32,000 bases of DNA, taken from the NCBI GenBank assembly GCA_026625185.1, contig CP113000.1, positions 1,485,622-1,517,621 on the forward strand. The letters run 5' to 3'. The notes under the pieces are model-generated. The model searched no databases. It had not been told where the DNA came from and saw only the letters and a program-made list of their open reading frames with translations. Shown piece by piece: positions 9,886 through 24,848 of this stretch. The DNA is from Thermodesulfobacteriota bacterium. GTDB lineage: Bacteria > Desulfobacterota > WTBG01 > JAGOGO01. The stretch's first letter is position 1, and every line of letters begins with the position of its first letter. The position numbers and the translations under genes are program-made.

Positions 9886-9914
9886 AAAAAAACCCTTATT
9901 TTTAAGGGTTTTTA
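9886..9914. terminator. Bidirectional hairpin terminator
   Basis: AAAAAAA-CCCTTA-TTTT-TAAGGG-TTTTT is a perfect 6-bp stem flanked by an A-run and a T-run. Confidence 0.45.
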
Positions 9915-9945
9915 AAATTTTGTGAGACTATATAGGAATTTAATA

Positions 9946-9975
9946 TGGTGGAGGCGGGGGGAGTTGAACCCCCGT
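9946..9975 (-). repeat. Island-distal att repeat (30-nt copy of the tmRNA 3' end)
   Basis: TGGTGGAGGCGGGGGGAGTTGAACCCCCGT is identical to 24495-24524. Confidence 0.85.
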
Positions 9976-10017
9976 TTCCCGATAAAAAATCGTTTAAAAA
10001 CAATACGCTAAAAAAGA

Positions 10018-10037
10018 CTGACAAACGGCTGACAAAG
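10018..10037 (+). promoter_or_regulatory. Tandem CTGACAAA motifs (candidate integrase arm-type sites), distal end
   Basis: CTGACAAAcggCTGACAAAG lies 43 nt inside the distal att repeat. A near-identical block lies at 24425-24444. Confidence 0.5.
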
Positions 10038-10109
10038 TTAACAGGTTTTTTAAAGGTAAAAAAGCAGGAAGTTTGTTTGGAAAAATTAGTCTCCGGGAAT
10101 GGTTCACAT

Positions 10110-10138
10110 TTGACATGATACTTTTTTTGTAATATTAG
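10110..10138 (+). promoter_or_regulatory. Sigma-70-type promoter for the Panacea operon
   Basis: TTGACA, a 17-nt spacer and TATTAG lie ~35 nt upstream of the ATG at 10174. Confidence 0.45.
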
Positions 10139-10173
10139 GCTTCGTAGGAAAATTATTAAATGGTAAACTACCC

Positions 10174-10881
10174 ATGCCCCAAATAAGCAATTTAATACAA
10201 TTCATTGTTTGTTACGCCACACAGCGAGATATACAACTAACAACCGTCAGGTTGGTAAAATTTATATATCTTGCTGATTTATATTATGCAAGAGCAACAC
10301 AGGGTCGAACACTGACAGAATTACCGTGGGCGTTTGTTTATTATGGTCCCTACTGTCGCGAGGTAATGAGAGAAATTGATAAAACAACCGCTTTGGGACT
10401 AATCAATAAGACTTCGTATGAAAGTAGATTTTCAGGTTCTAAAGATTACAATATTTTTACTTGCATAGACGCAGACTTGGGAGACCTTGAAGATAAACTT
10501 TCAATTTATGTTACTTCACCACTAAAGGATGTCATTAAAAGATTTGGAGACGACACGCCTGCATTATTAGATTTTGTTTATTTTGAGACCGAGCCTATGA
10601 TTTCTGCCAAACCGGGTGAAAGCTTGAATTTCTCGGTTGCAAAGCCGTTAGAAAAACCAAAAGAAATCAAATTTAAGACGCTTTCTAAAGAAAAAATTGA
10701 GCTTGCCAAAAAGCACATCAGGAAATATGGAGAGAAACTCGAAGATGGAAGGGAAAGACTCAAACTTGATATGCTCGAAGAAAGAACACATAGAGATGAA
10801 TCATATTATCAAGCTCTTGAGTTTTGGGAGGAAGAAGATTTAGAGGTAGGATTTGAGGGAATCGCAAAAATAGAAATCTAA
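10174..10881 (+). CDS. Panacea-domain (DUF4065, SocA/GepA-like) protein with K/E-rich C-terminal extension; candidate antitoxin
   Basis: 'TTVRLVKFIYLADLYYARATQGRTLTELPWAFVYYGPYCREV' follows the Panacea/DUF4065 pattern (KLxKLLYxAD...G.PLt...w.a..yGP). Its stop overlaps the next start (TAATG). Confidence 0.6.
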   Translation: MPQISNLIQFIVCYATQRDIQLTTVRLVKFIYLADLYYARATQGRTLTELPWAFVYYGPYCREVMREIDKTTALGLINKTSYESRFSGSKDYNIFTCIDADLGDLEDKLSIYVTSPLKDVIKRFGDDTPALLDFVYFETEPMISAKPGESLNFSVAKPLEKPKEIKFKTLSKEKIELAKKHIRKYGEKLEDGRERLKLDMLEERTHRDESYYQALEFWEEEDLEVGFEGIAKIEI

Positions 10882-11591
10882 TGGGGATTCTACAGTTATA
10901 CTCGCCACAAGACTTTTATGTAACGGTTGATAGAACCGCTTATTGCCAGGGCCAATTTTGTTGGCTGCCCGTTCCTCATATTGATCCCATCCCACGAATA
11001 CTTGATGTTGAGAGGAGCTCACCAACCGAACATAACGAAATCAAATTTGTCTTGCGAAATGCCAATCGAGCGAATGACTTTCAAGCCCTCGACCGCCATC
11101 TTCCTGTTAAAAATCTTAATCTAAGAGCAAACGAGGAACTCTTTGTTCAAAGGGCAAAAAAAAGACCAGGCATTATTATTGCTTCTAAGGTTGATATTTT
11201 TCCCGAAATTACCAACTTATTGCGACAAAAAGGAAGACCCCATCTCCAACAAGATTCCATCTTTGTAATTCCAATTTATTCCATAGAAAATGAAGAAAAA
11301 AAAAGTGGTTTTCCCCAAGAGATAGTTACAAAAACACTCTGCCTCTTATATAAGCAGTTTTTCTATTTACCAAATGGCAAAAGCTTCAAGGAGGGAATTG
11401 CGAGGTTCGACCGAGTACAAGTGGTTGTTTCTCGAGATCGTGCCGCCATTGTACCAATGGATATTTGCTTATCACAAGATGTACTTAACCTTTTTTTTGG
11501 GTTATTTATATACTGTTTAACAGGTGTGGAGGATCCCGATATTAAAGTAGCACGTGATTTAATTAAAGAAACGTATTCTCCAGAATTATAA
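10881..11591 (+). CDS. Hypothetical 236-aa protein, candidate toxin/effector partner (distant PemK/MazF-like motif order)
   Basis: It is translationally coupled to the Panacea gene. The segments 'GQFCWLPVP', 'AKKRPGIIIAS', 'SIFVIPIYS' and 'GIARFDRVQVVVSRDR' occur in the same order as the MazF/Kid core strands, with large insertions. The family call is by eye only. Confidence 0.35.
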   Translation: MGILQLYSPQDFYVTVDRTAYCQGQFCWLPVPHIDPIPRILDVERSSPTEHNEIKFVLRNANRANDFQALDRHLPVKNLNLRANEELFVQRAKKRPGIIIASKVDIFPEITNLLRQKGRPHLQQDSIFVIPIYSIENEEKKSGFPQEIVTKTLCLLYKQFFYLPNGKSFKEGIARFDRVQVVVSRDRAAIVPMDICLSQDVLNLFFGLFIYCLTGVEDPDIKVARDLIKETYSPEL

Positions 11592-11797
11592 ACTTATTAA
11601 TGTACACCATTAAAGCTCTAAAACATTATACCCGGCCTTGAAATGGTTTTTTTATTACCTTTAGGATAAACCCCTACCTCTGGGAATTCTCCCTATAAAA
11701 ATGAGGTAGTTCCCCTATAGACAAGAAGTAAAATTCTTATTATTAAAATAGACTAACAGGACAATTAACTACCTTCCATTACCTCCTCACCCCGAAA

Positions 11798-11826
11798 CCC
11801 TTGCCGGAAACGGTAGGGGTTTTTTA
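11798..11826 (+). terminator. Intrinsic terminator
   Basis: The stem is CCCTTGCCG-GAAA-CGGTAGGGG (9 bp with two G-U pairs and a GNRA loop), followed by GTTTTTTATTT. Confidence 0.6.
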
Positions 11827-12064
11827 TTTCTTTCCCTTCTTTTTCCCCTCCCCTTCCTCAGAGATTTTAAAAGAATTCCTTTTCAATGGAATGTCCGTGG
11901 GAATTTTTTAACCTGAGAGGGACTCCGCTCAGGCGTATAGGTAAAAAATGAAAATTAAAAGTGTTGACTTTCGGAGGATTAAAGCGTTGAATAGAATAAC
12001 CTTCATTTAAAAAAGAAGTTATTCTATAGGGAAAGGAAAAAATGCAATATAAGTGATGGGATAG

Positions 12065-12100
12065 GCCGAATTATCCGTAAAGGGATAGTTCGGCTTTTTT
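12065..12100 (+). terminator. Strong intrinsic terminator with no upstream ORF (possible sRNA 3' end)
   Basis: GCCGAATTATCC-GTAAA-GGGATAGTTCGGC is a 12-bp stem with one G-U pair, followed by TTTTTT. Confidence 0.65.
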
Positions 12101-12174
12101 ATTGGCTGTGTAGAGGAAAAGTGGGAAGTGATAGAAAAGCTTAATAATAGTTAACTCTGAAAGGAGGAAATACT

Positions 12175-12816
12175 ATGAAAAAAATTATAATGTTTTTTAT
12201 TTTCTTTGGGCTTGTAGTTTTCTTTTTATTCCAATTCAGCATCCCAGTTTCAGCCGATAGCTTTCTTTACGATGGCACTACCTGGACTACCCTGAATTAC
12301 CCTGGCGGTGGTCAAACTGATGTCCAGGGTATTGACGGCAACAATATTGTTGGACACTGCGTGGATGGGGGGTTCCTTTATGACGGTACTACCTGGACCC
12401 TTCTGAATTACCCGGGGGGTACTTTCACTGCAGCCTATGGTATTGACGGTAACAATATCGTGGGAATATGTGCTGATTCTGATGGTCGTTATGGGTTCGT
12501 GTATGATGGCATTACCTGGACTACCCTGAATTACCCTGGCTCTGAGTACACTGTTTTCCATGGTATTGACGGTAACAATATTGTGGGAGAGCACTCAAAC
12601 TACTCTCCGGTTAGCCGTGGGTTCGTGTATGATGGCATTACCTGGACCCCTCTGGATAACCCTTGGGGGGATGTGACAATACCTCTTGGCATATCCGGTA
12701 ACAATATTGTGGGAGTATTCGATAAAAGTAATGTTCCCACCCCTGGGACATTACTTCTTGTTGGCTCCGGCCTCATCGGTCTTGCAGGGTTAAGGAGGAA
12801 GTTTAGAACAAGGTAA
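12175..12816 (+). CDS. Secreted repeat protein (four HAF-like ~40-aa repeats) with PEP-CTERM-type sorting signal
   Basis: SD AAAGGAGGAAA precedes the start and a signal peptide is present. The unit 'F(L/V)YDG(T/I)TWTxLNYPG...GIDGNNIVG' occurs 4 times. The C-terminus 'VPTPGTLLLVGSGLIGLAGLRRKFRTR' has a PEP-like motif, a TM helix and a basic tail. Confidence 0.8.
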   Translation: MKKIIMFFIFFGLVVFFLFQFSIPVSADSFLYDGTTWTTLNYPGGGQTDVQGIDGNNIVGHCVDGGFLYDGTTWTLLNYPGGTFTAAYGIDGNNIVGICADSDGRYGFVYDGITWTTLNYPGSEYTVFHGIDGNNIVGEHSNYSPVSRGFVYDGITWTPLDNPWGDVTIPLGISGNNIVGVFDKSNVPTPGTLLLVGSGLIGLAGLRRKFRTR

Positions 12817-12929
12817 TAACAGTAATCGCTTGTTCAGAAGGGACAACATCAGTAACAAGAAAAAAGGAAATAAAAAAAGGGCTTCAAGGATAATTTGTTT
12901 GAGGTTTCCTCCCAAACAATGCTTAACTT

Positions 12930-13043
12930 TCACAGAGTGCTCTTGTGTTGCTTATCCTGCTTCTTTTTTGCTCTTTTCTCCTGTTTGCTTATTTTCTGCT
13001 TCCGACTCTTATTCTTATCCTTTTTCCCGCCTTTGTCTCCCAT
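12930..13043 (-). CDS. Possible 37-aa lysine-rich peptide (MGDKGGKKDKNKSRKQKISKQEKRAKKKQDKQHKSTL)
   Basis: AAGGAG lies 7 nt upstream of the ATG, and the RBS is partly buried in the hairpin TTTTCGTT...AACGAAAA (13056-13083). The composition is low-complexity, so it may be non-coding. Confidence 0.2.
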   Translation of the reverse strand: MGDKGGKKDKNKSRKQKISKQEKRAKKKQDKQHKSTL

Positions 13044-13164
13044 TGCGTGACTCCTTTTCGTTATTAATTCTTAAACGAAAACAGTAATATTAAAAACCTT
13101 AATCGGCAAAGAATCAACTAATGTTTTTCCCCCATCCTCTTCCTCAGAAACTATTGTGCCTGCT

Positions 13165-13620
13165 TTACTTTCTCACGACGAGCACAGGGATTTTTATATC
13201 TTGATGTATTACCCCGAAGGTGACGCTTCCGAGAATCGCTGCCTTTAAAGCGCTTCTGCCCTGAGACCCCATTACGATGAGATCAACTTTTGATTTTACT
13301 GCCTCGTTGACAATTTCTTCCACCGGGTGTCCTGACCGGATGACTTTTTTTGATTGAATACCCTTTTTTGTACAGATTTTTTCACCCTCTTTAAGATAAG
13401 CCTCAGCAGTTTGCTTCAGGTAATGATCAATCGGCTCAATAATATGCGTTGGAGAATCTACCGCAGAAACGGTCTGGGCTATAAAGGAGCCGACATTGAT
13501 ATCGATTACACTCAACAAGGTAATTTTTGCGCCCAATTGCTTTGCGAGGCCAGCTGCATATTTAACAGATTTATTTGATGTTTCCGAACCATCGGTGGGA
13601 ACAAGAATTTTTGAAATCAT
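13165..13620 (-). CDS. Universal stress protein (UspA family)
   Basis: 'ILVPTDGSETSNKSVKYA' and 'DLIVMGSQGRSALKAAILGSVTFGVIHQDIKIPVLVV' are canonical Usp motifs. SD AGGAGGA precedes the start. Confidence 0.9.
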   Translation of the reverse strand: MISKILVPTDGSETSNKSVKYAAGLAKQLGAKITLLSVIDINVGSFIAQTVSAVDSPTHIIEPIDHYLKQTAEAYLKEGEKICTKKGIQSKKVIRSGHPVEEIVNEAVKSKVDLIVMGSQGRSALKAAILGSVTFGVIHQDIKIPVLVVRK

Positions 13621-13681
13621 ATGTCCTCCTTTATTAATAAGTTTAAACGATCGCCGGAGCTAATATTTCGGGAACCAGTTT

Positions 13682-13957
13682 TTATGAAGTCTCTCGTTTT
13701 GGTTTGTCCTTTAGTTTTCTTTTTCTTTCCCCTTCCTCAGGGATAATCGTCATTAAATCATTCGGGGTGCACCCGAAAAAAAGGCAAAGCTTTTCAATAA
13801 TTTCAACATTAGGTTTGTAGTGCCCCTTACTATGGGAAATTTTAGAGATGGTCACCCGTGAGATACCCGTCTTTTCAGCTATCTCATTAATCAAAATAGA
13901 TCGCTTTTCCTTAAATTCCTTATCCTCAAGCAATTGTCTAAAGTGAAATTGTATCAT
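13682..13957 (-). CDS. XRE-family HTH transcriptional regulator (start moved to the ATG at 13957)
   Basis: 'LINEIAEKTGISRVTISKISHSKG...NVEIIEKLCLFFGCTPNDL' is an HTH_3 pattern. The TTG at 13993 used by the ORF track is better read as part of a TTGACA -35 box. Confidence 0.8.
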   Translation of the reverse strand: MIQFHFRQLLEDKEFKEKRSILINEIAEKTGISRVTISKISHSKGHYKPNVEIIEKLCLFFGCTPNDLMTIIPEEGERKRKLKDKPKRETS

Positions 13958-13964
13958 GGTGTTA

Positions 13965-13993
13965 TCTTTACCAGCATTAAAGGTTTTTGTCAA
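13965..13993 (-). promoter_or_regulatory. Promoter giving a leaderless or near-leaderless XRE mRNA
   Basis: On the minus strand, TTGACA, a 17-nt spacer and TAAAGA precede the ATG, which begins ~7 nt after the -10. No SD is present. Confidence 0.45.
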
Positions 13994-14039
13994 TAGCTAA
14001 CAAAAATTAACTTTCGACAATAATTATTTCATTTTTCCT

Positions 14040-14068
14040 TTGACAAACCATTTTTATTGGAGTATTTA
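14040..14068 (+). promoter_or_regulatory. Divergent promoter for the recombinase leader
   Basis: TTGACA, a 17-nt spacer and TATTTA. The predicted transcript runs ~150 nt to the terminator at 14183-14228. Confidence 0.4.
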
Positions 14069-14182
14069 TTTATTATCTTAAGTTAAAAATTATTAACATT
14101 AATTAATTTAACAACTTACATGAAAACCCCGCGTAATCAAAAAGTAAATAGTAACGTTTCCATCCTTCTGGATGGCTTAAGG

Positions 14183-14228
14183 GCCTGGCGCAGGTTTAAC
14201 GTGGGGTTATCCTGTCCGGGCTTTTTTT
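14183..14228 (+). terminator. Intrinsic terminator/attenuator 18 nt upstream of the recombinase start
   Basis: GCCTGGCGCAGG...CCTGTCCGGGC is followed by TTTTTTT. It is preceded by the hairpin CCATCC-TTCT-GGATGG (14160-14175). A long-range pair is AACCCCGCGT (14125-14134) with ACGTGGGGTT (14199-14208). Confidence 0.55.
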
Positions 14229-14246
14229 GCAGAAAGGGGTGAAGTC

Positions 14247-14837
14247 ATGAAGGGAGCGCGTCATTTATCAAAGGAAGAAATTCAAAACCTCACTCAATCC
14301 TTCTATGGGGAATACGAGGTTAGAAACCGGACTCTCTTTCTCCTGGGCTTAAACATCGGAACGAGAATCTCAGAGCTACTGGCTTTGAACGTGGGGGACG
14401 TTTGGCAGTACGGAAAGCCAGTTGCAATCCTTGAGCTAAGGAAGGCCATTACCAAAGGGAAGAAGACCCGGCAAATCCCCTTGAATGAGCAGGCGCGGGA
14501 AGTCATTACCGAGCTTATCGGGTGGAAAGAATCTCAAGGGGAAGACCTCTCTCCCCACGCTCCGCTTTTTGCTTCCCGGCAAGGAAATAAGAGGCTATCC
14601 CGCTTTCGGGTTCATCAGATATTGAAAGAGTCCTTTCAATCAAGCGAATGTTCGGGAAAGGTAAGCACGCACAGCTTGAGAAAGTCATTTGCCAAAGCAC
14701 TCCTTACGGGCGGGAATAACTTAAGAGCGATTCAGATTCTTTTAGGGCACGCAAGCCTTGCTACCACGGAGAGGTATCTGCAAGTATCCCCGGAGGAACT
14801 AAATAGAGCGGTATCCTCTTTGAGCTTTGCAGCTTAA
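14247..14837 (+). CDS. Short tyrosine recombinase (196 aa, catalytic domain only; FimB/FimE-sized)
   Basis: 'NRTLFLLGLNIGTRISELLALNVGDV' carries the catalytic Arg, 'THSLRKSFA' the H-x-x-R, and 'LLGHASLATTERYLQV' the His and Tyr nucleophile. No N-terminal core-binding domain is present. Confidence 0.85.
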   Translation: MKGARHLSKEEIQNLTQSFYGEYEVRNRTLFLLGLNIGTRISELLALNVGDVWQYGKPVAILELRKAITKGKKTRQIPLNEQAREVITELIGWKESQGEDLSPHAPLFASRQGNKRLSRFRVHQILKESFQSSECSGKVSTHSLRKSFAKALLTGGNNLRAIQILLGHASLATTERYLQVSPEELNRAVSSLSFAA

Positions 14838-14846
14838 TGGGAGAGT

Positions 14847-14960
14847 TTGAGATAGAACTTTCTGGGGCTTCTCAGGCGGTCATTTTGTGGGATAGTTCAC
14901 AAGAAAAGGGGCGAGCGCGTGGGTGAGTAAGGGGGTGATTGAGATAGAGCTTTGTAGGGC
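14847..14960 (+). repeat. Pair of 22-nt direct repeats downstream of the recombinase
   Basis: TTGAGATAGAACTTTCTGGGGC (14847-14868) matches TTGAGATAGAGCTTTGTAGGGC (14939-14960) at 19/22 positions. A partial third copy, GAGCTTTGCAGC, lies at 14822-14833. Confidence 0.6.
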
Positions 14961-15010
14961 AAATTAAGTTACACAAAACAATGATTTTGTTGAGTTGGTA
15001 TTAACTATTA

Positions 15011-15316
15011 ATGAAAGGAAGGTGTGTTATGTGTACCGTGGCAGAAGAAGAAAAAACAATTGGCGATCTTCACTATTCCCTTTTAAGGGAAAAAAACAAG
15101 ATTCTATTTTTGGCCGACGTGTTTAATGGGGAAATGATGTTTATAGATAATACTGATGAGAAAAAAAATGCGGACATCTTGGCTGGACTGGGGAACGTCC
15201 TCGAAGACATCGCCGTGACCGTTAACGGCGTAGTTAATGAACTTGAGAAATGGGATTATAAAACCATTTCTTTAACCAACGAAAGGAGAGACCACGAAGG
15301 AAGAAAAAGAAATTGA
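15011..15316 (+). CDS. Hypothetical acidic protein (alternative start ATG at 15029 behind GAAAGGAAGG)
   Basis: The ORF has an SD. It has no recognisable domain. It resembles the following ORF (…LEDIAVTVNGVVNELEKW versus …VEDVAKNIMKYREEY). Confidence 0.5.
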   Translation: MKGRCVMCTVAEEEKTIGDLHYSLLREKNKILFLADVFNGEMMFIDNTDEKKNADILAGLGNVLEDIAVTVNGVVNELEKWDYKTISLTNERRDHEGRKRN

Positions 15317-15527
15317 AGTAACGGAGAAAGAAAAAATCCTGGATTTAGATGGTGGGTTGTTCGAGGTAGTTTGTAGGCTTAAGGTTTTAGATGAATTTTT
15401 GGATAGTTTAATAACCACAGATGAGTTGGGTGAGGAAAACCTTAAAAAACTCCAGGGGATGCAATTAATTGTGGAAGATGTGGCGAAAAATATAATGAAG
15501 TATCGGGAAGAGTATTTGGAGGCGTGA
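15276..15527 (+). CDS. Paralogous downstream ORF lacking a canonical start codon (possible frameshifted continuation)
   Basis: The frame is open from 15276 to the TGA at 15525-15527. A strong SD, AAGGAGAG, lies at 15283-15290, but there is no ATG/GTG/TTG within reach. The sequence is similar to the upstream ORF. Confidence 0.3.
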   Translation, partial: PTKGETTKEEKEIEVTEKEKILDLDGGLFEVVCRLKVLDEFLDSLITTDELGEENLKKLQGMQLIVEDVAKNIMKYREEYLEA

Positions 15528-15869
15528 AACTCCCGGACTGTCCAAAAAATACCCCGCAGAGCTTCTGTAGGACGTCTAAAAGGGGCCTAAAAGCTCTTAT
15601 CTCAGGCGGGTAATGGTAGGATAAGGGGGATTTAAGATCGAGGTTTTTTAGGGGAGAAAAAGACACTTTAGTCGAAGAACATTAAAAAATAGATGGCCTT
15701 GTTTATATCCTTGAGCACCGGGACCGTGGGTAAGACCCTCGATAGGCTTAACCATGAACATCTTGAAGCAAGTGAATTACAAAATCGTTTACATTAATAA
15801 AAGATTATTTTTTTTGGGTATGGTGTTTGACTGGGACAAGGTTAGGGTAGGGGGTAGAAGGTTAAGGAA

Positions 15870-15891
15870 GGGGTGGGGGTATGGGGTGGGG
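15870..15891 (+). other. Canonical G-quadruplex motif
   Basis: GGGG-T-GGGGG-TAT-GGGG-T-GGGG has four G-runs of at least 4 with loops of 1, 3 and 1 nt. Further G-runs lie at 15845-15854. Confidence 0.5.
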
Positions 15892-16153
15892 AGCGATCAG
15901 CGCCTTGACCTGATAATATGGTTTATTCCCTTATACTCTGGGGGTAAAAATTCACCTTGGGAAACTATTTGACCTTTTGCAAAAAAGATTGTTTAATGGA
16001 TTTTATTAAACCAACTTTTGGGGAAGGAATGAAACAAACTGTTTTTGATTTTTATAAGCCCTTCACGCTCCGATTTACAGATCAGAGTGCGATGGGTTTT
16101 TGTTTTTATAAATAGAGGTAAAACCTTCCCAAACTTTGTTGGAGTGAGATAAT

Positions 16154-16582
16154 ATGAAAAGGAGATATTGGATTGTCTTTGCGGCCTTTGGATTTATTGT
16201 TTTCTTTGCCTTAGTGTCACACGCGGCTGAGTGGAAACTTTTCGCAACCAGTGAAGGGGCATCTCATTATTATGACCCGCAAAGAATAAAGCATGTGTCT
16301 AAAGATACCATGCAGGTCTGGAAAAAAATGGTTTTTAAGGAAAAAAGTATACAGGATGTGGTTAAGATGCTTGGGCCTGAATTTAAAGAACTGAGTTATG
16401 AGATTATGTTATGTGAATATAACTGTGATGAAAAGAATCATCGCATCTTATCATCAAAATTTTATAACAAGAAAAGGAGTGTTATACACACATCTCCTAA
16501 AGGTTCTTTTTCTCCTTGGGGTTTTATCATTCCAGACTCTGTTGACGGAACTCTTTTCAATATCGTTTGCGGCAGTCGCTAA
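16154..16582 (+). CDS. Secreted protein resembling surface-adhesin protein E family
   Basis: A signal peptide is present. 'W..F...EGASHYYDPQRIKHVSKDTMQVWKK' and 'CDEKNHRILS...W..IIPDS' follow the pattern of that family. The assignment is by eye only. Confidence 0.45.
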   Translation: MKRRYWIVFAAFGFIVFFALVSHAAEWKLFATSEGASHYYDPQRIKHVSKDTMQVWKKMVFKEKSIQDVVKMLGPEFKELSYEIMLCEYNCDEKNHRILSSKFYNKKRSVIHTSPKGSFSPWGFIIPDSVDGTLFNIVCGSR

Positions 16583-16622
16583 GGTTTTTGGTAATTATAA
16601 AAAGCAATAGAGGGGTGGAGTT

Positions 16623-17324
16623 ATGAAAGGAATTTTAAAAAGCAAAATTTTCTTTATCGGTTTATTCCTTTTCATCTTTCTCATTAATGCCGCTCAAGCA
16701 ACCGAATATCGCCAGTGCACAAGGGTAGTTGACGGCGACACCATTATCCTTGATAGAAACGAGAGAGTAAGGTTAATAGGTGTTGATACTCCTGAAACCG
16801 TCTATCCAAGTAAGCCGGTTGAGTTCTTCGGAAAAGAAGCTTCTGCCTTTACTAAGCGGATGGTACAAGGTAAAAAGGTTCGGTTAGAATATGACTGGCA
16901 GCGCAAAGACAAGTACGGGCGCACCCTGGCCTATATCTACCTCTCGGATGGTACTTTTCTTAATGCCGAGATAATTAAACAAGGTTATGGTCACGCCTAT
17001 ACCAAATACCCGTTTAAATATTTAGAAGACTTCCGTAAATACGAGCGGGAATCACGAGAGAAAAGGCGAGGGCTTTGGGCTGATGATCCAGTGGCAAGCA
17101 CAGAAAGACTTGCTCAAGGTGAAGGGAACAAAAGTCCTCCTGGTCAAATTCTTCCTAACGTAGCACCACAGAAAAGCGAGGCAGTTACCGTCTATGTCAC
17201 AAGGACGGGAGCGAAGTATCATCGAGAGGGTTGTAGATATTTAAGAAGAAGTTCAATTCCAATTTCTCTTGAAGAAGCAAAAAAGCGTTATTCTCCGTGT
17301 AGTGTTTGCAGCCCACCACAATGA
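16623..17324 (+). CDS. Secreted thermonuclease (SNase/micrococcal nuclease family) with C-terminal Cys-rich motif
   Basis: A signal peptide is present. 'VVDGDTIILDRNERVRLIGVDTPET' and 'KDKYGRTLAYIYLSDGTFLNAEIIKQGYGHAY' are SNase core motifs. The C-terminal motif is 'KYHREGCRYLRRS...PCSVCSPP'. Confidence 0.9.
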   Translation: MKGILKSKIFFIGLFLFIFLINAAQATEYRQCTRVVDGDTIILDRNERVRLIGVDTPETVYPSKPVEFFGKEASAFTKRMVQGKKVRLEYDWQRKDKYGRTLAYIYLSDGTFLNAEIIKQGYGHAYTKYPFKYLEDFRKYERESREKRRGLWADDPVASTERLAQGEGNKSPPGQILPNVAPQKSEAVTVYVTRTGAKYHREGCRYLRRSSIPISLEEAKKRYSPCSVCSPPQ

Positions 17325-17330
17325 ATTGAG

Positions 17331-17398
17331 CCCAGCCGGAGGAAGGGAGATGCTTTTACTCCATTTCCTTAATTCCCTTACCCTCCGGCTGGGGTTTT
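17331..17398 (+). terminator. Long-hairpin intrinsic terminator after the nuclease gene
   Basis: CCCAGCCGGAGG (17331-17342) pairs with CCTCCGGCTGGG (17382-17393) and is followed by GTTTT. Confidence 0.5.
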
Positions 17399-17493
17399 AT
17401 CTGTAAGGCCCTACGGTTGAGCTCCCGGAAAAGGCGGGTATCTCCCCTGCCCTGGGCCTTATTTCTATTAGGAGAGCTACAAGGAGAGGTAGC

Positions 17494-18651
17494 ATGGCAA
17501 GAACCAAAAAGAAAGTTGTTGACCTTTTAGCAAATCTACCCCCAAAAACACAATGGCTTTTAGATTTTGCTAATTTGGGGAAAAAGCAAGGGAAGTTAAG
17601 TCCTCCGCGTTTTAGTGAAAAACCCAAGCGAGAACCAAAATATAACGCTAATAATATGCTTCCAGATAGCTTATCTAAGTTCAGAGAGATAGATAAAGAG
17701 GGTAATGTCTTTTTACACAGCGAGGATATAAAAGAGCGTGGTTTTGATGAAAATGGAAGTTCGATCTATGAGCACATAGGACGAAAGGTAACCTGGCTGG
17801 GAAATAGAAGTGCTTATCGCCCTAATAAGGATTTTCCTCTTAAGGAATTTAAGGAATGGGTTTTAAATGTAGGCCTTCCACCTTCTCAAAACCTTTCCAG
17901 GATAGAGATTGCCGAACCCTATTGTGATGACTCACTTGACGATGACCTTGTTACAGTGATGACATATTCCGGGGCAACAAATGAAGTTGATGGAAATCAG
18001 TTTAAATACAGAAATCATTTACTGAAGCTAAAAGAGAATACCACAGAGGACAGGGGGATTCAGGAACTGCTCGCTCGTTATCAGTTGTGGATTAAAAAAG
18101 TTCTTGAGTGGATAATTGACCCCAAGGATACTCAGTTTCTCCCTAAAGGGTTTTTAAAGATTAATTCATTAAATCCGCTTGCACCTTCTATTAACCATAA
18201 CCACAAAAACAGAAAAGAGGTATTTGAACATTCAACCCCTATGCCCTCTATCCCTAAAGCAGTTTGGGCTTACCTCTTGGACTTCTGGGTTAATCAACAA
18301 AACCTTTGTAAGCTACTGAAAGCATGCCCCACTTGTGGAAGGTTCTTCTTTAAAGAGGGGAAAATGACCTATTGCTGCACCAAGTGTAAAACCAGGTTTA
18401 ACCTAATAACCAGGGAAAGTGATGCGAAGAGAAAAAGAGATGGCAGAACAATGCAAAAAGAAAAACTGAGGTCGAGAGAAGAGACAAAGGAGCGTTGGTT
18501 TAAAGAAGAAGAAAAAAAATATCGGGACTACTTCAACGCATTGGGTTACTCACAGGAAGCAATTAATGGTGTAATTGATAATATACTTTATGGAGATGGT
18601 TTATCATTTGAGGAAGGGCTGAAAAAATATCAGTGGGGAAAACGTAGGTAA
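17494..18651 (+). CDS. Hypothetical 385-aa protein with CGNR-like zinc ribbon and basic C-terminal region
   Basis: SD AAGGAGAGG precedes the start. 'CPTCGRFFFKEGKMTYCCTKCKTRFN' is a four-Cys ribbon resembling CGNR zinc fingers. The N-terminal 270 aa have no recognisable domain. Confidence 0.6.
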   Translation: MARTKKKVVDLLANLPPKTQWLLDFANLGKKQGKLSPPRFSEKPKREPKYNANNMLPDSLSKFREIDKEGNVFLHSEDIKERGFDENGSSIYEHIGRKVTWLGNRSAYRPNKDFPLKEFKEWVLNVGLPPSQNLSRIEIAEPYCDDSLDDDLVTVMTYSGATNEVDGNQFKYRNHLLKLKENTTEDRGIQELLARYQLWIKKVLEWIIDPKDTQFLPKGFLKINSLNPLAPSINHNHKNRKEVFEHSTPMPSIPKAVWAYLLDFWVNQQNLCKLLKACPTCGRFFFKEGKMTYCCTKCKTRFNLITRESDAKRKRDGRTMQKEKLRSREETKERWFKEEEKKYRDYFNALGYSQEAINGVIDNILYGDGLSFEEGLKKYQWGKRR

Positions 18652-18682
18652 CTCGTAGAAACAAAATCATCATTTTATTGAG

Positions 18683-18716
18683 AAGCCACGGGGCACAAAG
18701 CCTTTGTGGCTTTTTT
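18683..18716 (+). terminator. Intrinsic terminator
   Basis: AAGCCAC...GTGGCTT is followed by TTTTTATTT, ~30 nt after the stop codon. Confidence 0.55.
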
Positions 18717-18720
18717 ATTT

Positions 18721-18851
18721 GTCCATTCGTTTCTCATTCTAAAACCATGAATAAAGAATGGACTCTAACTATATGTAATTATTATGATAATTGTGGTATC
18801 TATGATATATAGAATGAGGAAAAATAACCAAAAAACGAAGAGTAAATCTTT
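18721..18851 (+). repeat. Regulatory-region repeat, copy 1
   Basis: It is collinear with 19045-19184. The exact 23-mer AATTATTATGATAATTGTGGTAT (18777-18799) contains the palindrome AATTAT-N4-ATAATT. TAAAGAATGGAC and ATAACCAAAAAA are also shared. Confidence 0.65.
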
Positions 18852-18995
18852 ATGCCAAAGATTAACACCAAAGAGAAGGTTACATCACACACAGTTTATA
18901 GGGAGATAAATTATTATTTTTATTATAGCGAGCAAGGAAGTAAGTTATCAAATCTATTCAACAAAAAAGGAAATTTTAAACTTTTTTCATATTAG
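18852..18995 (+). CDS. Possible 47-aa ORF behind repeat copy 1
   Basis: The ATG sits at the same position relative to the repeat as the XRE start does behind copy 2. The SD is degenerate (GAAGAG). No similarity was recognised. Confidence 0.2.
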   Translation: MPKINTKEKVTSHTVYREINYYFYYSEQGSKLSNLFNKKGNFKLFSY

Positions 18996-19044
18996 TAGGG
19001 AGGAAAAATATGACCTTTTTAGTCAACTAAATGAAAAAAACAAT

Positions 19045-19184
19045 GTCCACTCTTTTTTATACTAAAAACCATAAGTAAAGAATGGACGCTAAGTATATAG
19101 AATTATTATGATAATTGTGGTATACATTGAGTGGGGAGAGAGAAAAGAAGTAAAAAATAACCAAAAAAGTAAGGAGTAAACACT
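19045..19184 (+). repeat. Regulatory-region repeat, copy 2 (upstream of the XRE gene)
   Basis: The same 23-mer lies at 19101-19123. The repeat ends with SD AAGGAG and the ATG at 19185. Confidence 0.65.
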
Positions 19185-19382
19185 ATGACAAAAAATCAGC
19201 TTCACGAGGTAAGGAGAGAGAAAAGAGTTCGTCAATGGGAACTGGCAGCAATAGCAAGAGTTCATCAAAGCAGGCTATCGCTTGCCGAGAATGGTTTCAT
19301 ATCTTTGAAGCCGGAAGAGGAAGAAAGAGTTGCTCAGGCCCTTGGAGAAGACCCTAAAAACATTTTCCCGGAGGTTAATTAA
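19185..19382 (+). CDS. Small XRE/Cro-like HTH regulator
   Basis: 'VRQWELAAIARVHQSRLSLAENGFISL' is an HTH_3-like pattern in a 65-aa protein. It is the first gene of the replication operon. Confidence 0.75.
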   Translation: MTKNQLHEVRREKRVRQWELAAIARVHQSRLSLAENGFISLKPEEEERVAQALGEDPKNIFPEVN

Positions 19383-19552
19383 TGAAGATAAACGAGATTG
19401 AACGCAGAAAATATTTAGCCCTTCAAGCTTTCTATCTTGAGACAAAGCGGGCAATGGAGGTCCTGGAAAAAAAGTTAAAGGCAAAGCCAATAGAGCTAAA
19501 ACACGTTGAGGTTTTAGAGTGCCAGGAGAAAGTGAATGCTTCAACTTGTTAA
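19382..19552 (+). CDS. Hypothetical 56-aa protein (below the ORF-track cutoff)
   Basis: Its ATG overlaps the preceding stop (TAATG). The predicted protein is helical and K/E-rich. Confidence 0.4.
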   Translation: MKINEIERRKYLALQAFYLETKRAMEVLEKKLKAKPIELKHVEVLECQEKVNASTC

Positions 19553-19709
19553 ACCACAACGGGCTAACGATACCGAACTTGAAATCACCCGGCTTGAGCG
19601 GGTTAGAGGTGAACTCGCTGACATTGCCATTGAGCGGAATTTGAGCGGGGAAGCGAAGCAATCCTTTAGCTCAACGATTGACTGGCTAACCTTTTTCATA
19701 AACGAATAG
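19536..19709 (+). CDS. Hypothetical 57-aa protein (below the ORF-track cutoff)
   Basis: Its ATG overlaps the end of the previous ORF. It ends 25 nt before the primase start. Confidence 0.35.
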   Translation: MLQLVKPQRANDTELEITRLERVRGELADIAIERNLSGEAKQSFSSTIDWLTFFINE

Positions 19710-19734
19710 AAAGGGAGAGATAGAGGGCTCGGAG

Positions 19735-21789: not shown

Positions 21790-21793
21790 AACT

Positions 21794-21978
21794 GTTACCA
21801 ATTTTGTTGCCACCTAAAAAACAGGGGTATTCGTTCATAAATTCAAATGGTTACACAGTTTCTTATAATAGAGGAAGTAAAAAAAACCTCTCTCTTATAT
21901 ATATGGCTTTTTTTGCTGTTTTCCCCTTTATTTTCCTGTGGTTATGACCGAAAAAAAAGTGGCAACACTTTTGGTAAC
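21794..21978. repeat. 20-nt inverted repeats flanking a 145-bp promoter-containing segment (ori or invertible switch candidate)
   Basis: GTTACCAATTTTGTTGCCAC (21794-21813) faces GTGGCAACACTTTTGGTAAC (21959-21978); the outer 8+8 nt are exact and 17/20 match overall. Inside lie TTCAAA-16-TATAAT (21842-21869) and a further GGTTAC. Confidence 0.5.
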
Positions 21979-22061
21979 ACTTTGTTTTGAAGTGCCTCAA
22001 ACCGAGTCCGAGGTACGGGTGGATGGTGGACATAAAAAACCAATAAGGAAGGAAAATCGAA

Positions 22062-22499
22062 ATGGATAATGACCGTATTTCAGGGGAACTAAAACCGATT
22101 ATCAAGCGAGATGAATTAGGCAGGTTTTTACCTGGAACACTGGCAGGGCCAGGATGGCGCAATAGAAATGAGGAAACGCAAAAATTAGCACAACTACGAG
22201 ATGATTTATTAGCTGGCAGTGAAGAAGCAATTGCAGAACTTAGAAAGCTACTAAAGGAAAGTAAAAGCGAAAACGTAAAGGTAAACGCTGCTAAGATTCT
22301 AATCGTTTGCGCGAAGATCATTCCCGACCAGGTTTTTCATGAATCGTGGAAAATGATCCTCAAGAAGGAAGAAGGGGGCAAAAAGGAGGGATTGCTCGCC
22401 GCGCTCCCGGAGTTCGGGGAATATTTAGCCTGGAAAGCTCAACAGGACGCTAACAGAGTGATCGATGTTACTTCAAGTCACAAGGAGGGCAAACAATGA
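22062..22499 (+). CDS. Hypothetical protein with DUF5681/small-terminase-like N-terminal motif
   Basis: 'RDELGRFLPGTLAGPGWRNRN' resembles the G-R-F-x-x-G...G-x-G motif at the N-termini of phage TerS-like/DUF5681 proteins. The assignment is weak. Confidence 0.5.
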   Translation: MDNDRISGELKPIIKRDELGRFLPGTLAGPGWRNRNEETQKLAQLRDDLLAGSEEAIAELRKLLKESKSENVKVNAAKILIVCAKIIPDQVFHESWKMILKKEEGGKKEGLLAALPEFGEYLAWKAQQDANRVIDVTSSHKEGKQ

Positions 22500-22819
22500 C
22501 ACTGGGTGAAATACTGCAATTACAAAACCAAACACTTGGCGATTTTTCATCGGCGGCATATCCACAACAGGGGTTTCAGCTTCCTCCCGGCTGGCTGGAA
22601 TGGCTTTTGAGAAACTGGCAGATGATGGGTAGCACAAGACCCGAATATACGCCAGGGGCTGAAGATAGGACGGTGGGGCCGCAAGAGATGTATCAGCTAA
22701 AAATACCCGCCTGGCAACCAAACCCTGAGTATGGGGTGGATAAGATGAGAATTCCCCAGGAGAAACTACAGAAGCGATTAAAAAGGGTTTCTGACCCGAA
22801 CCGCTTGAGGAGAATTTAA
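22496..22819 (+). CDS. Hypothetical protein
   Basis: Its start overlaps the previous stop (ATGA). It lies in a compact same-strand operon. No domain was recognised. Confidence 0.5.
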   Translation: MTLGEILQLQNQTLGDFSSAAYPQQGFQLPPGWLEWLLRNWQMMGSTRPEYTPGAEDRTVGPQEMYQLKIPAWQPNPEYGVDKMRIPQEKLQKRLKRVSDPNRLRRI

Positions 22820-22821
22820 CC

Positions 22822-23118: not shown

Positions 23119-23331
23119 TACCCTACGCACACGCAAAAAACCGTACCACTTCGCCATTGAAATTATTGAGGTTTTTAGGGGTAAAAATAGCAGTCCCGGA
23201 CTTTATCAACCATCGAAACTAAGACATTAATGATTTTCCCGCAAGCCACAAAAAAAGCATTTGCAAACCCTTCCGCAAGCTATGCTAATATTCCTTCTTT
23301 AACTACTTCATTTAAAGAAGGGAGGCTCTGT

Positions 23332-24492
23332 ATGCTCGGAGGCGTTTATAGCGACCAGAGGTGTCCGTTATGCGGGGGATCATTCAAGGATGATGGCAAG
23401 CGTGGTTTGTCCTGTCCGAATCATCCAGAACAAAGGGCAACTAATTTTAGGATTGCTTTCAAGGGGCTTTGTCTTAGGTTTATAAACTACGACGATGCTC
23501 AACAAGTGCTTTCTGGTATGCGGTTTAAATTCCGTGAGGGGTCTTTTGATGACCGGGACTACCGGAAGGATCAACCCCTTGGGTTCTCGAATTTAGCAGA
23601 CCAGTTTCTTATTTACAAGGCGACAGTAGAAAAGAAGCGATCAACCGGGAAAATGGTTTATCACTTAAATTATGGCAGAAACTTTTTCCAGAACCGGAAC
23701 ATCAAGGACATTGGCGAAGGGGAGCTGCAAGACCTCTTAGCCTTCCTGCCCTCTCACCTATCCGATAAGACCAAGAAGAATATTTTTACTACCCTTCATT
23801 CTCTGTGGGCCTGGGTTCAGAAGCGGGAGAGAAAAAAAAATCCGTTTTTTATTATTCCTGAATTCCCTTCTATCCAGTATCAGCTCGCATGGCGCAGGAT
23901 TGTTGATAAGCCTACTCAATGGCAGATACTTCAAGAGATAGAAAGAATAGCGCCTAATCCCAAGATATACTTAGCTTGTCTATGGCTTGCCACTTATCCG
24001 AATGTAAGACCGGGTGAGCTTATCCACGTTAAAGAAAAAGACTTTGACCTACTTAACGGTACTCTGGAAATTAATTTCAACAAGGAGAATAAACCCAAGA
24101 AGATTTATCTCCTCCCGGAAGACGTTGAAACCGTCAAGTCCTTCCCCCGCAGTTTTCCTGATCTTTATTTTTTCCGAAAAAAAACTGGAAGGACATTTGG
24201 AGGAAAACTTCTCTGGAGGTGGTGGAAGCGAGCTTGTGATAACTCAGGTGTTGAAGGTGTGCCTCTCTATCCAGGGACAAAACACTCAACCGCTACAGAC
24301 CTTAAGCGCTCTCTCGGTGCCACAAGAGCAAGAGAAGCAACTGGACATACAACCAACAAAGCTTTTGAAAGGTATATTGTGGGAGATCCAGAAGACCTCC
24401 GGGCACTCTATGCTTATGCACGGCCTGACAAAGGTCTGACAAAGAATTCTTGCCCTTCTGGGAATGGTAACTTATTGAAACTTAAAGAATAA
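23332..24492 (+). CDS. int: Tyrosine integrase with N-terminal zinc-ribbon (start set at the ATG behind GAAGGGAGG; the ORF track starts at 23230)
   Basis: 'CPLCGG...CPNHPE' is a zinc ribbon. 'YPNVRPGELIHVKEKDF' carries the Arg. 'GTKHSTATDL' and 'GHTTNKAFERYI' carry the His and Tyr. The stop lies 2 nt from the tmRNA 3' end. Confidence 0.9.
   Translation: MLGGVYSDQRCPLCGGSFKDDGKRGLSCPNHPEQRATNFRIAFKGLCLRFINYDDAQQVLSGMRFKFREGSFDDRDYRKDQPLGFSNLADQFLIYKATVEKKRSTGKMVYHLNYGRNFFQNRNIKDIGEGELQDLLAFLPSHLSDKTKKNIFTTLHSLWAWVQKRERKKNPFFIIPEFPSIQYQLAWRRIVDKPTQWQILQEIERIAPNPKIYLACLWLATYPNVRPGELIHVKEKDFDLLNGTLEINFNKENKPKKIYLLPEDVETVKSFPRSFPDLYFFRKKTGRTFGGKLLWRWWKRACDNSGVEGVPLYPGTKHSTATDLKRSLGATRAREATGHTTNKAFERYIVGDPEDLRALYAYARPDKGLTKNSCPSGNGNLLKLKE
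24425..24444 (+). promoter_or_regulatory. Tandem CTGACAAA motifs (candidate arm-type sites), ssrA-proximal end
   Basis: CTGACAAAggtCTGACAAAG lies 51 nt inside the proximal att core, in the same orientation as 10018-10037. Confidence 0.5.
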
Positions 24493-24494
24493 AA

Positions 24495-24848
24495 TGGTGG
24501 AGGCGGGGGGAGTTGAACCCCCGTCCGAAAGCATTCAGCTCAGAGTATCTCCATACACAGTCTCGGTTTTATTAAGCGTTTTTATTCTCCCCGAGACAGG
24601 ATGATAAAAACGCTCATCCGGGTTGTTTTCGCCTCACACCATCCGGATACTGAAATGAGGCTATCCTGCTTATTCGACGCCTCTTCCCGCTCCACAGGAG
24701 AAAGCGAGAGAGACGGAAGCCGCGTTAAGCGGCTACAGCGTAATTATAATCGTTGGCGATTATGTTATTTTCACCAGTTTAACGAGATGGTGAAACCTCG
24801 GTATGCAACTCCGGCCTCAATTACCCCCGTCGAAGCCATTTCGCCCCC
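24495..24848 (-). ncRNA. ssrA: tmRNA (transfer-messenger RNA)
   Basis: The minus strand begins GGGGGCGAAAUGGCUUCGACGGGGG and ends GGGGGUUCAACUCCCCCCGCCUCCACCA. The acceptor stem has a G3-U pair. The tag frame GCC AAC GAU UAU AAU UAC GCU GUA GCC GCU UAA (24725-24757) encodes ANDYNYAVAA. smpB lies immediately upstream. Confidence 0.95.

Follow-up and report, generated by a model that had tools for sequence, protein, structure and literature searches.

A Panacea-domain gene and its overlapping partner at the tip of an ssrA island: a candidate PanA-PanT module with a predicted enlarged MazF-fold toxin

The locus considered here raises the question of what two overlapping genes, hereafter ORF1 and ORF2 (ORF, open reading frame), do at the very tip of an island integrated in ssrA, the transfer-messenger RNA (tmRNA) gene, of a Thermodesulfobacteriota bacterium. 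The whole stretch of DNA that was analysed (the window) comprises 32 kb of contig CP113000.1 (positions 1,485,622 to 1,517,621). Coordinates are window-based, and L-numbers (L001-L022, L103) designate related loci. An earlier note, made from the letters of the window, had proposed the two genes as a candidate toxin-antitoxin or defence pair. Our analysis makes it likely that ORF1 and ORF2 constitute a type II toxin-antitoxin (TA) module of the PanA-PanT (PanAT) kind, in which ORF2 is predicted from sequence and structure models to be an enlarged MazF-fold endoribonuclease, carried as cargo of the ssrA island and probably serving in abortive infection and/or island stabilisation.

The gene pair, its Panacea protein and its conservation

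Both genes are read from the same strand (Table 1). The TAATG overlap described in the earlier note was found again, the stop codon of ORF1 and the start codon of ORF2 having one base in common (-1 nucleotide (nt); junction sequence ...ATCTAATGGGG...). No Shine-Dalgarno sequence was detected before ORF2. An overlap of 1 or 4 nt is found in 14 of the 22 pairs compared, a set that counts the one in the window, and the gaps span -47 to +22 nt. The absence of a Shine-Dalgarno sequence before ORF2 and the frequency of overlapping pairs fit translational coupling, which on these sequence features is likely for ORF1 and ORF2.

The Panacea/SocA-like character first suggested for ORF1 was borne out by the Pfam model SocA_Panacea (PF13274), which it passes with an E-value of 3.8e-7 and 31.4 bits, against a gathering score of 25.7, over residues 27-126. 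Alignment of 19 partner proteins showed K29, Y32, L33, D35, G44, W52, F54 and G58-P59 to be invariant. The Panacea signature motif is "GPV", which is critical for neutralisation (PMC8832971). ORF1 carries a signature of this type, of which the G and P are invariant in the 19 partners, with Y or W in place of V at the third position. A further conserved block, LLDxVYFETEPM...F153, runs on to about nt 10632 and is likewise invariant in the 19 proteins. Beyond it lies the K/E-rich tail already pointed out in the earlier note: K and E make up 37.5% of residues 156-235 versus 10.3% of residues 1-155. This extension ends in a conserved acidic motif, EEEDLEVGFEG, in which G229 is invariant. Neutralisation by PanA proteins follows two modes, as a standalone Panacea domain can neutralise directly and other PanA proteins carry appended neutralising domains (Ernits et al. 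2023, PMC10440598). By analogy with these appended domains, the tail of ORF1 may be a linear element that neutralises the toxin. The only match of ORF1 in PADLOC-DB v2 was a chance-level one to JetB (E 0.015).

The Panacea domain is also the domain of SocA, the antitoxin of the type VI TA system SocA-SocB of Caulobacter, in which SocB, a toxin unrelated to ORF2, inhibits the replication clamp and SocA is a ClpXP adaptor. ORF1 might accordingly serve chiefly to hand ORF2 over to a host protease, as a proteolytic adaptor, and not to inhibit it by stable binding; proteolytic delivery and inhibition by binding can also coexist (Kurata et al., PMC8832971). We nevertheless hold a SocAB-like neutralisation to be very unlikely at this locus. 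Nothing at ORF1/ORF2 points to a ClpXP-adaptor mechanism, the antitoxin-first order and the translational coupling are typical of type II systems, and the conserved C-terminal region of ORF1 resembles an appended neutralising element. In addition, all PanAT pairs tested in the published survey are reported to have given stable complexes, consistent with type II (PMC8832971).

The computational checks proposed in the earlier note all came out in favour of its reading, among them the conservation of the gene pair across genomes. An ORF1 homologue lies immediately upstream of the ORF2 homologue and on the same strand in 19/19 related loci first fetched (phmmer E-values 1e-77 to 5e-20), which represent 18 distinct places as L002 duplicates L001. 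These loci span Deltaproteobacteria, Desulfobaccales, Desulfarculales, Syntrophobacter and Syntrophaceae metagenome-assembled genomes (MAGs) of the Thermodesulfobacteriota, a gammaproteobacterial MAG, Verrucomicrobiia and Dehalococcoidia. Two very distant toxins, taken from the search of cluster representatives, are again preceded by a partner of 247-263 amino acids (aa), which in L022 matches Panacea with an E-value of 4.5e-4 and in L020 has no Pfam match; several partner PanAs fall below the Pfam gathering score. With its -1 nt overlap and with flanking genes that vary from locus to locus, the pair has the two-gene layout by which Kurata et al. define PanAT loci. In two Syntrophobacter MAGs the toxin gene has decayed while the Panacea gene upstream is intact: it is frameshifted in L015 (6001-6700; frame 3, then frame 2) and truncated after residue 118 in L017 (6001-6402). 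Toxin decay next to an intact antitoxin gene is the pattern expected if ORF2 is the harmful partner.

A mainly phage-borne distribution of the module was considered and rejected, because the pair is present in a single contig out of 2.9 million in IMG/VR. In that contig (L103, 2039-5720) a gpA-type large terminase gene is followed, after about 300 nt, by the same two-ORF layout, as judged by ORF position. Neither ORF2 nor a distant family member gave a tblastn match among the PLSDB plasmids.

The pair lies in a cargo position at the tip of an island. The tmRNA gene itself (24495..24848 on the minus strand) was located with ARAGORN and Rfam (224.9 bits), and 35 nt of its 3' end recur as a direct repeat: the copies at 9941-9975 and 24490-24524 agree at 34/35 positions (97%). 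A 28-nt core of this repeat is exact and is present in the window in two copies only, versus 0.00 expected by chance. These two attachment-site (att) copies, the only ones found, are 14.5 kb apart, and such a distant copy of the ssrA 3' end is the classic footprint of an island integrated in ssrA. Oriented towards the island interior, the pair starts some 200 nt inward of the island-distal copy, so its placement directly inside the distal repeat, as given in the earlier note, holds. The guanine and cytosine content of the pair is 0.37, versus 0.45-0.55 in the host flank.

The two hexamers and the 17-nt spacer of the TTGACA-17-TATTAG promoter that the earlier note had assigned to the pair are present as described, and a role of this sigma-70-type site in driving the pair is plausible from its sequence, short of the firm assignment made there. 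The relaxed pattern TTGACA-N17-TATNA has a single match in the window, versus 0.04 expected; a consensus scanner omits the site because its -10 hexamer ends in G. Of 21 related loci inspected for it, four (L006, L007, L008 and L014) have a comparable TTGACA promoter ahead of the pair, and an alignment of the upstream regions revealed no operator or promoter conserved across loci. Elsewhere the pair follows restriction genes at gaps down to 17 nt (L005, after a methylase gene), and in some loci it may be co-transcribed with them.

Two further observations concern the ends of the pair. An 8-codon ORF (ATG at 10160, MVNYPCPK, stop at 10184-10186; region 10146-10186, plus strand) overlaps the ORF1 start codon at 10174 and has an AGGA Shine-Dalgarno-like motif 10 nt ahead of it, ORF1 itself lacking a Shine-Dalgarno sequence; this ORF may be a leader peptide, a coupling device or a chance occurrence. 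At the other end, about 200 nt of apparently non-coding sequence (11592-11793, plus strand), with no Rfam match at gathering thresholds, separate the ORF2 stop codon from the first terminator-like hairpin.

The ORF2 family, its fold and its predicted active site

ORF2 gave no match at E<=1 in Pfam, NCBIfam, PADLOC-DB v2 or PHROGs, in agreement with the earlier remark that it fits no nameable family; in particular, no match to a well-characterised non-toxin family was seen. A word-indexed search retrieved 86 homologues with 39-72% identity, all of about 235 aa and all "hypothetical" or unnamed. With a hidden Markov model (HMM) run against 1.84 billion cluster representatives, the family extends to at least 557 clusters (50% identity) at E<=1e-3, 318 of them at E<=1e-10, and nearly all its full-length proteins measure 225-260 aa. 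A further large protein search with the broad family alignment returned unnamed proteins only. Among 85 diverse members, whose mean identity is about 26%, R95 and P131 are invariant, and at least 90% of the members keep G24, P75, K93, R175 and D177. No other residue reaches that level, and all seven except P75 lie in motifs that align with PemK. The sole Pfam family matched by more than one member is PemK_toxin (3/85, best E 0.0044).

Structure prediction points to the same fold. AlphaFold2 models were built from the close-family alignment (predicted local distance difference test (pLDDT) 87.8, predicted template modelling score (pTM) 0.82) and from the broad alignment (pLDDT 92.4, pTM 0.87; five models agree), and an SH3-like beta-barrel with a C-terminal helix is found in these predicted models. 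Searched against the PDB with Foldseek, both models gave Kid, MoxT, S. aureus MazF and a B. cereus mRNA interferase as high-probability matches (above 0.8); E. coli MazF was added to these for the first model and M. tuberculosis MazF-mt1 for the second. These MazF-type matches have probabilities of 0.87-1.00 and target-normalised TM-scores of 0.48-0.64, all other matches having probabilities of at most 0.06, and the top BFVD match is annotated as "PemK-like protein". The other option of the earlier note, that ORF2 represents a new toxin fold or class, was rejected because only MazF-type structures match with high probability.

Profile-profile comparison points to remote PemK homology. We built a PemK profile of 70 sequences, namely Kid, E. 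coli MazF, B. subtilis EndoA, six PF02452-labelled proteins and 61 PemK ORFs from IMG/VR loci. The Kid sequence was compared with PDB entry 1m1f and adjusted to it at one residue. With hhalign, the 85-member ORF2 family aligned to this profile with 88.2% probability, an E-value of 2.9e-6 and a score of 43.7 over 103 columns. The control scores were 11.2 +/- 1.8 for column-shuffled, 18.6 for reversed and 24.8 +/- 3.2 (maximum 33.5) for 8-column-block-shuffled profiles. They are far below 43.7, so the order of the motifs adds to the signal beyond the motifs themselves. After excision of ORF2 residues 35-84, the alignment covered the whole PemK domain including beta1 (94.3% probability, E 1e-7, 121 columns). 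A diverse PemK set such as that from IMG/VR was needed, as an alignment dominated by Bacillus NdoA weakened the signal (E 0.009). The PemK HMM built here gave weak matches to ORF2-family members, which were consistently co-linear. The four ORF2 segments that had been noticed to occur in the order of the MazF/Kid strands are present and are placed on the PemK strands by the profile alignment. The Foldseek matches to MazF, Kid and MoxT and the hhalign probabilities of 88-94% together uphold the proposal of an unusually large PemK-fold variant.

The features shared with PemK/MazF/Kid proteins (PF02452) are the predicted core barrel and the co-linear motifs G-x-I-W, [ED]-E/Q, K/G-x-R-P, P-x-[TY]-S and R/x-x-D/E-Q/R, followed by the C-terminal helix (Table 1). 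R95 aligns with Kid R23, which a three-way alignment of Kid, MazF and EndoA equates with E. coli MazF Arg29, and thus occupies the place of the catalytic Arg located where the beta1-beta2 loop ends (Arg29 in E. coli MazF, Arg25 in B. subtilis MazF). R175 and D177 occupy the places of the Arg73/Asp75 pair of Kid. E. coli MazF uses Arg29 both as general acid and as general base, with Thr52 stabilising the transition state; in Kid, the acid role falls to Arg73 and His17 and the base role to Asp75 (PMC8887465). The strongest-conserved residues of the ORF2 family are therefore those at known MazF/Kid catalytic positions, the exception being the Thr, which is Tyr in ORF2. This pattern speaks for ORF2 as a probably active MazF/Kid-type enzyme whose active site has been modified.

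The differences from PemK/MazF/Kid lie in what has been added to the core and in its partner. In place of a single domain of about 110 aa, ORF2 has 236 aa, twice that size, owing to a 50-aa insertion between beta1 and beta2, a 33-aa insertion past beta3 and an extra C-terminal helix. In the first insertion R45, H51 and R59 are invariant in the close family and P75 is among the residues conserved in the broad family. The partner of ORF2 is a Panacea protein and not an AbrB- or ribbon-helix-helix-type antitoxin of the MazE/PemI/Kis group.

In the mechanism that we propose, ORF1 and ORF2 would be expressed as a bicistronic, translationally coupled cargo at the tip of the 14.5-kb ssrA island. ORF2 would be the toxin, its PemK/MazF core enlarged by the beta-hairpin-bearing first insertion, the second insertion and the extra helix, and would most likely act as a ribosome-independent endoribonuclease, with Arg95 and Arg175/Asp177 as predicted catalytic residues and Tyr133 replacing the usual Thr. 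ORF1, made up of an N-terminal Panacea domain and the 80-residue K/E-rich extension with its conserved acidic end, would be the antitoxin and would bind and block ORF2. If ORF1 were lost, degraded or triggered, RNA cleavage by ORF2 would follow and lead to growth arrest. Of this reading, the analysis shows the gene structure, the Panacea membership of ORF1, the strict conservation of the pair, the PemK-fold homology, the conservation at catalytic positions and the linkage to mobile elements and defence islands; toxicity, RNase chemistry, direct binding, the neutralising part of ORF1 and the biological role are inferred.

Several results weigh against this reading. ORF2 has no match to the Pfam PemK_toxin model (PF02452), and PADLOC does not recognise the ORF1/ORF2 pair. 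The Foldseek E-values, obtained on predicted structures, range from 6e-3 to 0.4 (best per model 6e-3 and 1.9e-2) and none reaches 1e-3; they are modest, so the fold search alone is not decisive. The close-family ORF2 profile found nothing at E<=10 among PDB sequences, and in hhalign the shallow close-family alignment A1 (effective number of sequences (Neff) 2.9) gave E-values of 0.06, 0.11 and 0.013; it takes the broad family profile to bring out the signal of PemK homology. In ORF1 no DNA-binding domain was detected, which leaves autoregulation unexplained. The frameshift in L015, counted above as toxin decay, may be an indel error of long-read assembly. The island gene scan found no restriction-modification (RM) or other recognised defence genes in the window island. 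Finally, the Thr of beta3 that is invariant in Kid (T46), E. coli MazF (T52) and EndoA, the B. subtilis MazF (Thr48), is Tyr133 in ORF2 and Tyr in at least 90% of the close family, so the chemistry or the target could differ.

The last point bears on an alternative in which ORF2 has a PemK/CcdB-type fold without being an endoribonuclease, and poisons another target (e.g., gyrase) or binds nucleic acid through its insertion subdomain. Besides the replaced catalytic Thr, the two large insertions would fit this alternative, as they reshape the region of the beta1-beta2 loop, which in MazF lines the active site. The gyrase poison CcdB also belongs to the same broad fold superfamily as MazF, the relation of the two folds being apparent in the HHpred lists of the Kurata dataset (PMC8832971). 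We consider this alternative unlikely. High-probability Foldseek matches were to MazF/Kid-type RNases only and never to CcdB, conservation is strongest at the MazF Arg29 and Kid Arg73/Asp75 positions, and the K-x-R-P and R-x-D motifs are MazF/Kid features. The hhalign comparison of the ORF2 family with F-plasmid CcdB gave an E-value of 0.46, which says little, because the template was a single sequence and with such a template Kid reached 0.065. Like the SocA-like neutralisation discussed above and the interpretation as a pair other than TA discussed below, a non-RNase target is thus less likely than the PanA-PanT module with a MazF-type RNase.

Genomic neighbourhoods, possible roles and known systems

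The gene environment of the related pairs was evaluated with Pfam. Among the 16 loci with at least 5 kb of flank, 10 have RM, BREX or TIR genes beside the pair, a lower bound since not every neighbour was scanned; in these defence-linked loci the pair lies at about 5.3-6.7 kb within the locus. Type I RM genes are found in L003, L015, L016 and L017, an N6/N4 methylase with a ResIII helicase (type III-like RM) in L005, L009 and L014, an Eco57I-like methylase with a YhcG nuclease in L012, a TIR-domain protein in L004, and the BREX genes BrxL and PglZ in L018. Integrases are nearby in L001, where the context is an integrase/DnaB element, and in L003. In three loci (L006, L007 and L008) the pair lies among housekeeping genes, with no obvious mobile element. 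Distant members of the family have HipA/Phd and ParE neighbours.

The placement of the module in other genomes makes abortive-infection-type phage defence and/or stabilisation of mobile elements its likely roles. The island-tip position in the window favours element stabilisation and the family-wide neighbourhoods favour abortive-infection defence; the two roles are compatible. It is possible, though we do not prefer it, that the same module has been selected here for post-segregational stabilisation of the ssrA island (addiction) and not for phage defence. The pair stands at the very tip of an integrative island, beside att, and this island carries an integrase and a primase-polymerase without RM or recognised defence genes. 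The integrases near the L001 and L003 pairs speak for the same role, and PanAT pairs have been found near transposases, where they may be addiction modules (Kurata et al., PMC8832971). Set against this are the RM, BREX or TIR neighbours of 10/16 related loci and the three pairs that lie among housekeeping genes; moreover, addiction and defence are not mutually exclusive.

The interpretation of the pair as something other than a TA module would make ORF2 a harmless PemK-fold protein, the two genes jointly serving another function of the mobile element. In its favour, the toxicity of ORF2 is itself a prediction, and 8 of 25 PanT candidates, one of them MazF-like, were not toxic in E. coli (PMC8832971). 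This is the least probable of the alternatives that we weighed, given that the antitoxin-toxin order and the overlap are strictly conserved, that residues at catalytic positions are kept across 85 members at about 26% mean identity, that the toxin gene has decayed in two loci with an intact antitoxin gene, and that the neighbourhoods are rich in defence and TA genes.

Among known systems, PanAT pairs with MazF-like toxins come closest. Panacea antitoxins pair with dozens of toxin folds, including MazF-like toxins without a conserved-domain match; the MazF-like PanT clusters are T5, T6 and T29, and the PanAT pairs of Pseudomonas moraviensis and Bifidobacterium ruminantium were toxic and neutralised experimentally (Kurata et al. 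2022, PMC8832971). ORF1/ORF2 resemble them in having a Panacea antitoxin without an N-terminal DNA-binding domain, an antitoxin gene that comes first with a -1 or -4 nt overlap, a toxin that lacks a conserved-domain match and is MazF/PemK-like by profile or structure, and a chromosomal location linked to mobile elements. They differ in that ORF2, of about 236 aa, has two insertions, that ORF1 has the 80-aa K/E-rich C-terminal extension, and that the ORF2 family is found almost only in uncultured MAGs. The ORF2 family may or may not coincide with one of the clusters T5, T6 and T29; the comparison covered the N- and C-terminal ends of the P. moraviensis PanT deduced from primers (MPGNIL..., ...IRQNNF), which match none of the 366 proteins fetched. 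The survey of Kurata et al. used the Pfam gathering score, below which several ORF1-family partners fall.

A second comparison is with PrrC, an ABC-ATPase-like anticodon nuclease that has no antitoxin gene and is embedded in EcoprrI-type RM loci. Pairs related to ORF1/ORF2 are similarly located within or beside type I (L003, L015, L016) or type III-like (L005, L009, L014) RM operons, and by analogy this placement suggests a second-line, RNA-targeting suicide defence coupled to RM. In contrast, PrrC has no sequence or fold relation to ORF2, and the window island has no RM genes. A more far-reaching and rather doubtful idea is that the module is a widespread, so far unrecognised anti-phage back-up to RM and BREX, in which the Panacea domain would sense a phage cue or the failure of a neighbouring system and release a MazF-fold RNase. 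The inserted beta-hairpin subdomain and the Tyr-for-Thr active site of this RNase would then set its substrate or chemistry apart from those of classical MazF, the target being for example a specific tRNA or rRNA.

The combination of PanA with a MazF-like PanT being already established, the kind of system is known. New relative to anything found are the toxin architecture, with its doubled length, two insertions and a Tyr in place of Thr, the extent of a family that is nameless in the libraries and source records consulted, the C-terminal extension of PanA and the recurrent adjacency to RM, BREX and TIR genes. The family, with its at least 557 clusters almost all from uncultured bacteria, would be a large addition to the MazF superfamily and to the PanAT network, and it shows the extent to which the small MazF barrel can be elaborated, in that an insertion into the loop usually gating the active site has doubled its size. 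The repeated adjacency to type I or type III-like RM, BREX and TIR genes makes the pair a testable candidate for a new abortive-infection module, and the ORF1/ORF2 family offers a test case for the hypothesis that Panacea domains are sensors. A profile made from the ORF2 family would render hundreds of "hypothetical protein" pairs recognisable as TA or defence loci.

The ssrA island around the pair

The features of the pair and of the island are collected in Table 1. The hairpin just outside the distal att copy is, from its position, probably the displaced terminator of ssrA.

Table 1. Features of the ORF1/ORF2 pair and of the ssrA island (window coordinates)
Feature	Position	Strand	Basis or remark
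Bidirectional intrinsic-terminator-like hairpin	9888..9913	.	11-pair stem then T run, both strands
Island-distal att repeat, duplicated tmRNA 3' end	9941..9975	.	repeat comparison
Candidate sigma-70-type promoter	10110..10138	+	TTGACA (10110-10115), 17 nt, TATTAG (10133-10138); ends 36 nt before ORF1 ATG
ORF1, panA-like antitoxin gene (predicted), 235 aa, isoelectric point 5.2	10174..10881	+	ORF call and Pfam
Panacea/SocA (DUF4065) domain of ORF1, residues 27-126	10252..10551	+	Pfam
ORF1 signature G58-P59-Y60	10345-10353	+	alignment of 19 partner proteins
K/E-rich C-terminal extension of ORF1, residues 156-235	10639..10878	+	composition and conservation
TAATG stop/start overlap	10879..10883	+	TAA 10879-10881, ATG 10881-10883
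ORF2, panT-like toxin gene (predicted), 236 aa, isoelectric point 7.6, enlarged PemK/MazF-fold protein	10881..11591	+	ORF call and fold/profile comparison
Strand beta1, G24-QFCWLPVP	10950..10976	+	aligns with PemK "rGeIyw" (hhalign, insertion 1 excised)
Insertion 1, residues 33-84, beta1-beta2 loop	10977..11132	+	extra beta-hairpin (39-45, 54-60) and loop in models
E85-E86, K93-K-R95-P96, strand beta2	11133..11183	+	EE corresponds to PemK "sEQ", K-x-R-P to "G-x-R-P"
Strand beta3, P131-I-Y133-S134	11256..11282	+	aligns with PemK "P-v-T-S"
Insertion 2, residues 135-167	11283..11381	+	helix 146-153 and short strand; conserved GFP...YxQFF; gapped versus PemK
Strand with G-I-A-R175-F-D177-R178	11394..11429	+	aligns with Kid G-V-V-R73-C-D75-Q
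C-terminal helices 199-214 and 219-229	11475..11567	+	first aligns with PemK C-terminal helix, second is the extension
First terminator-like hairpin 3' of ORF2	11794..11823	+	13 pairs then T run; about 200 nt past stop codon
PEP-CTERM protein, just past the pair inside the island	12175-12816	+	four tandem repeats of about 37-42 aa
Usp (universal stress protein)	13165-13620	-	island gene scan
Helix-turn-helix (HTH) protein	13682-13993	-	island gene scan
Second integrase-domain ORF, 196 aa	14247-14837		island gene scan
Adhesin_E (adhesin-like protein)	16154-16582		island gene scan
SNase (staphylococcal-nuclease homologue)	16623-17324		island gene scan
NrS-1-type primase-polymerase	19735-21789		island gene scan
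Weak tyrosine-integrase-like ORF, 420 aa, abutting ssrA at the proximal island end	23230..24492	+	Phage_integrase E 4.8e-4, below Pfam cut-off
tmRNA gene and, at its 3' end, proximal att copy (24490-24524)	24490..24848	-	Rfam, ARAGORN and repeat comparison

The island (9941-24524) looks composite, with two integrase-type ORFs, the primase-polymerase and assorted cargo. Within the PEP-CTERM gene, the protein repeats are matched at the DNA level by a 98-nt repeat family of 64-82% identity. The Rfam int-alpA RNA motif was found at 17404-17475 on the plus strand, where it scores 38.2 bits (gathering score 35.8); a 385-aa ORF without a Pfam match (17494-18651) directly follows it. The primase-polymerase gene is preceded by an intergenic duplication (18720-18859 and 19044-19192), with 80 nt at 81% and 40 nt at 75% identity and a spacing of 324-333 nt.

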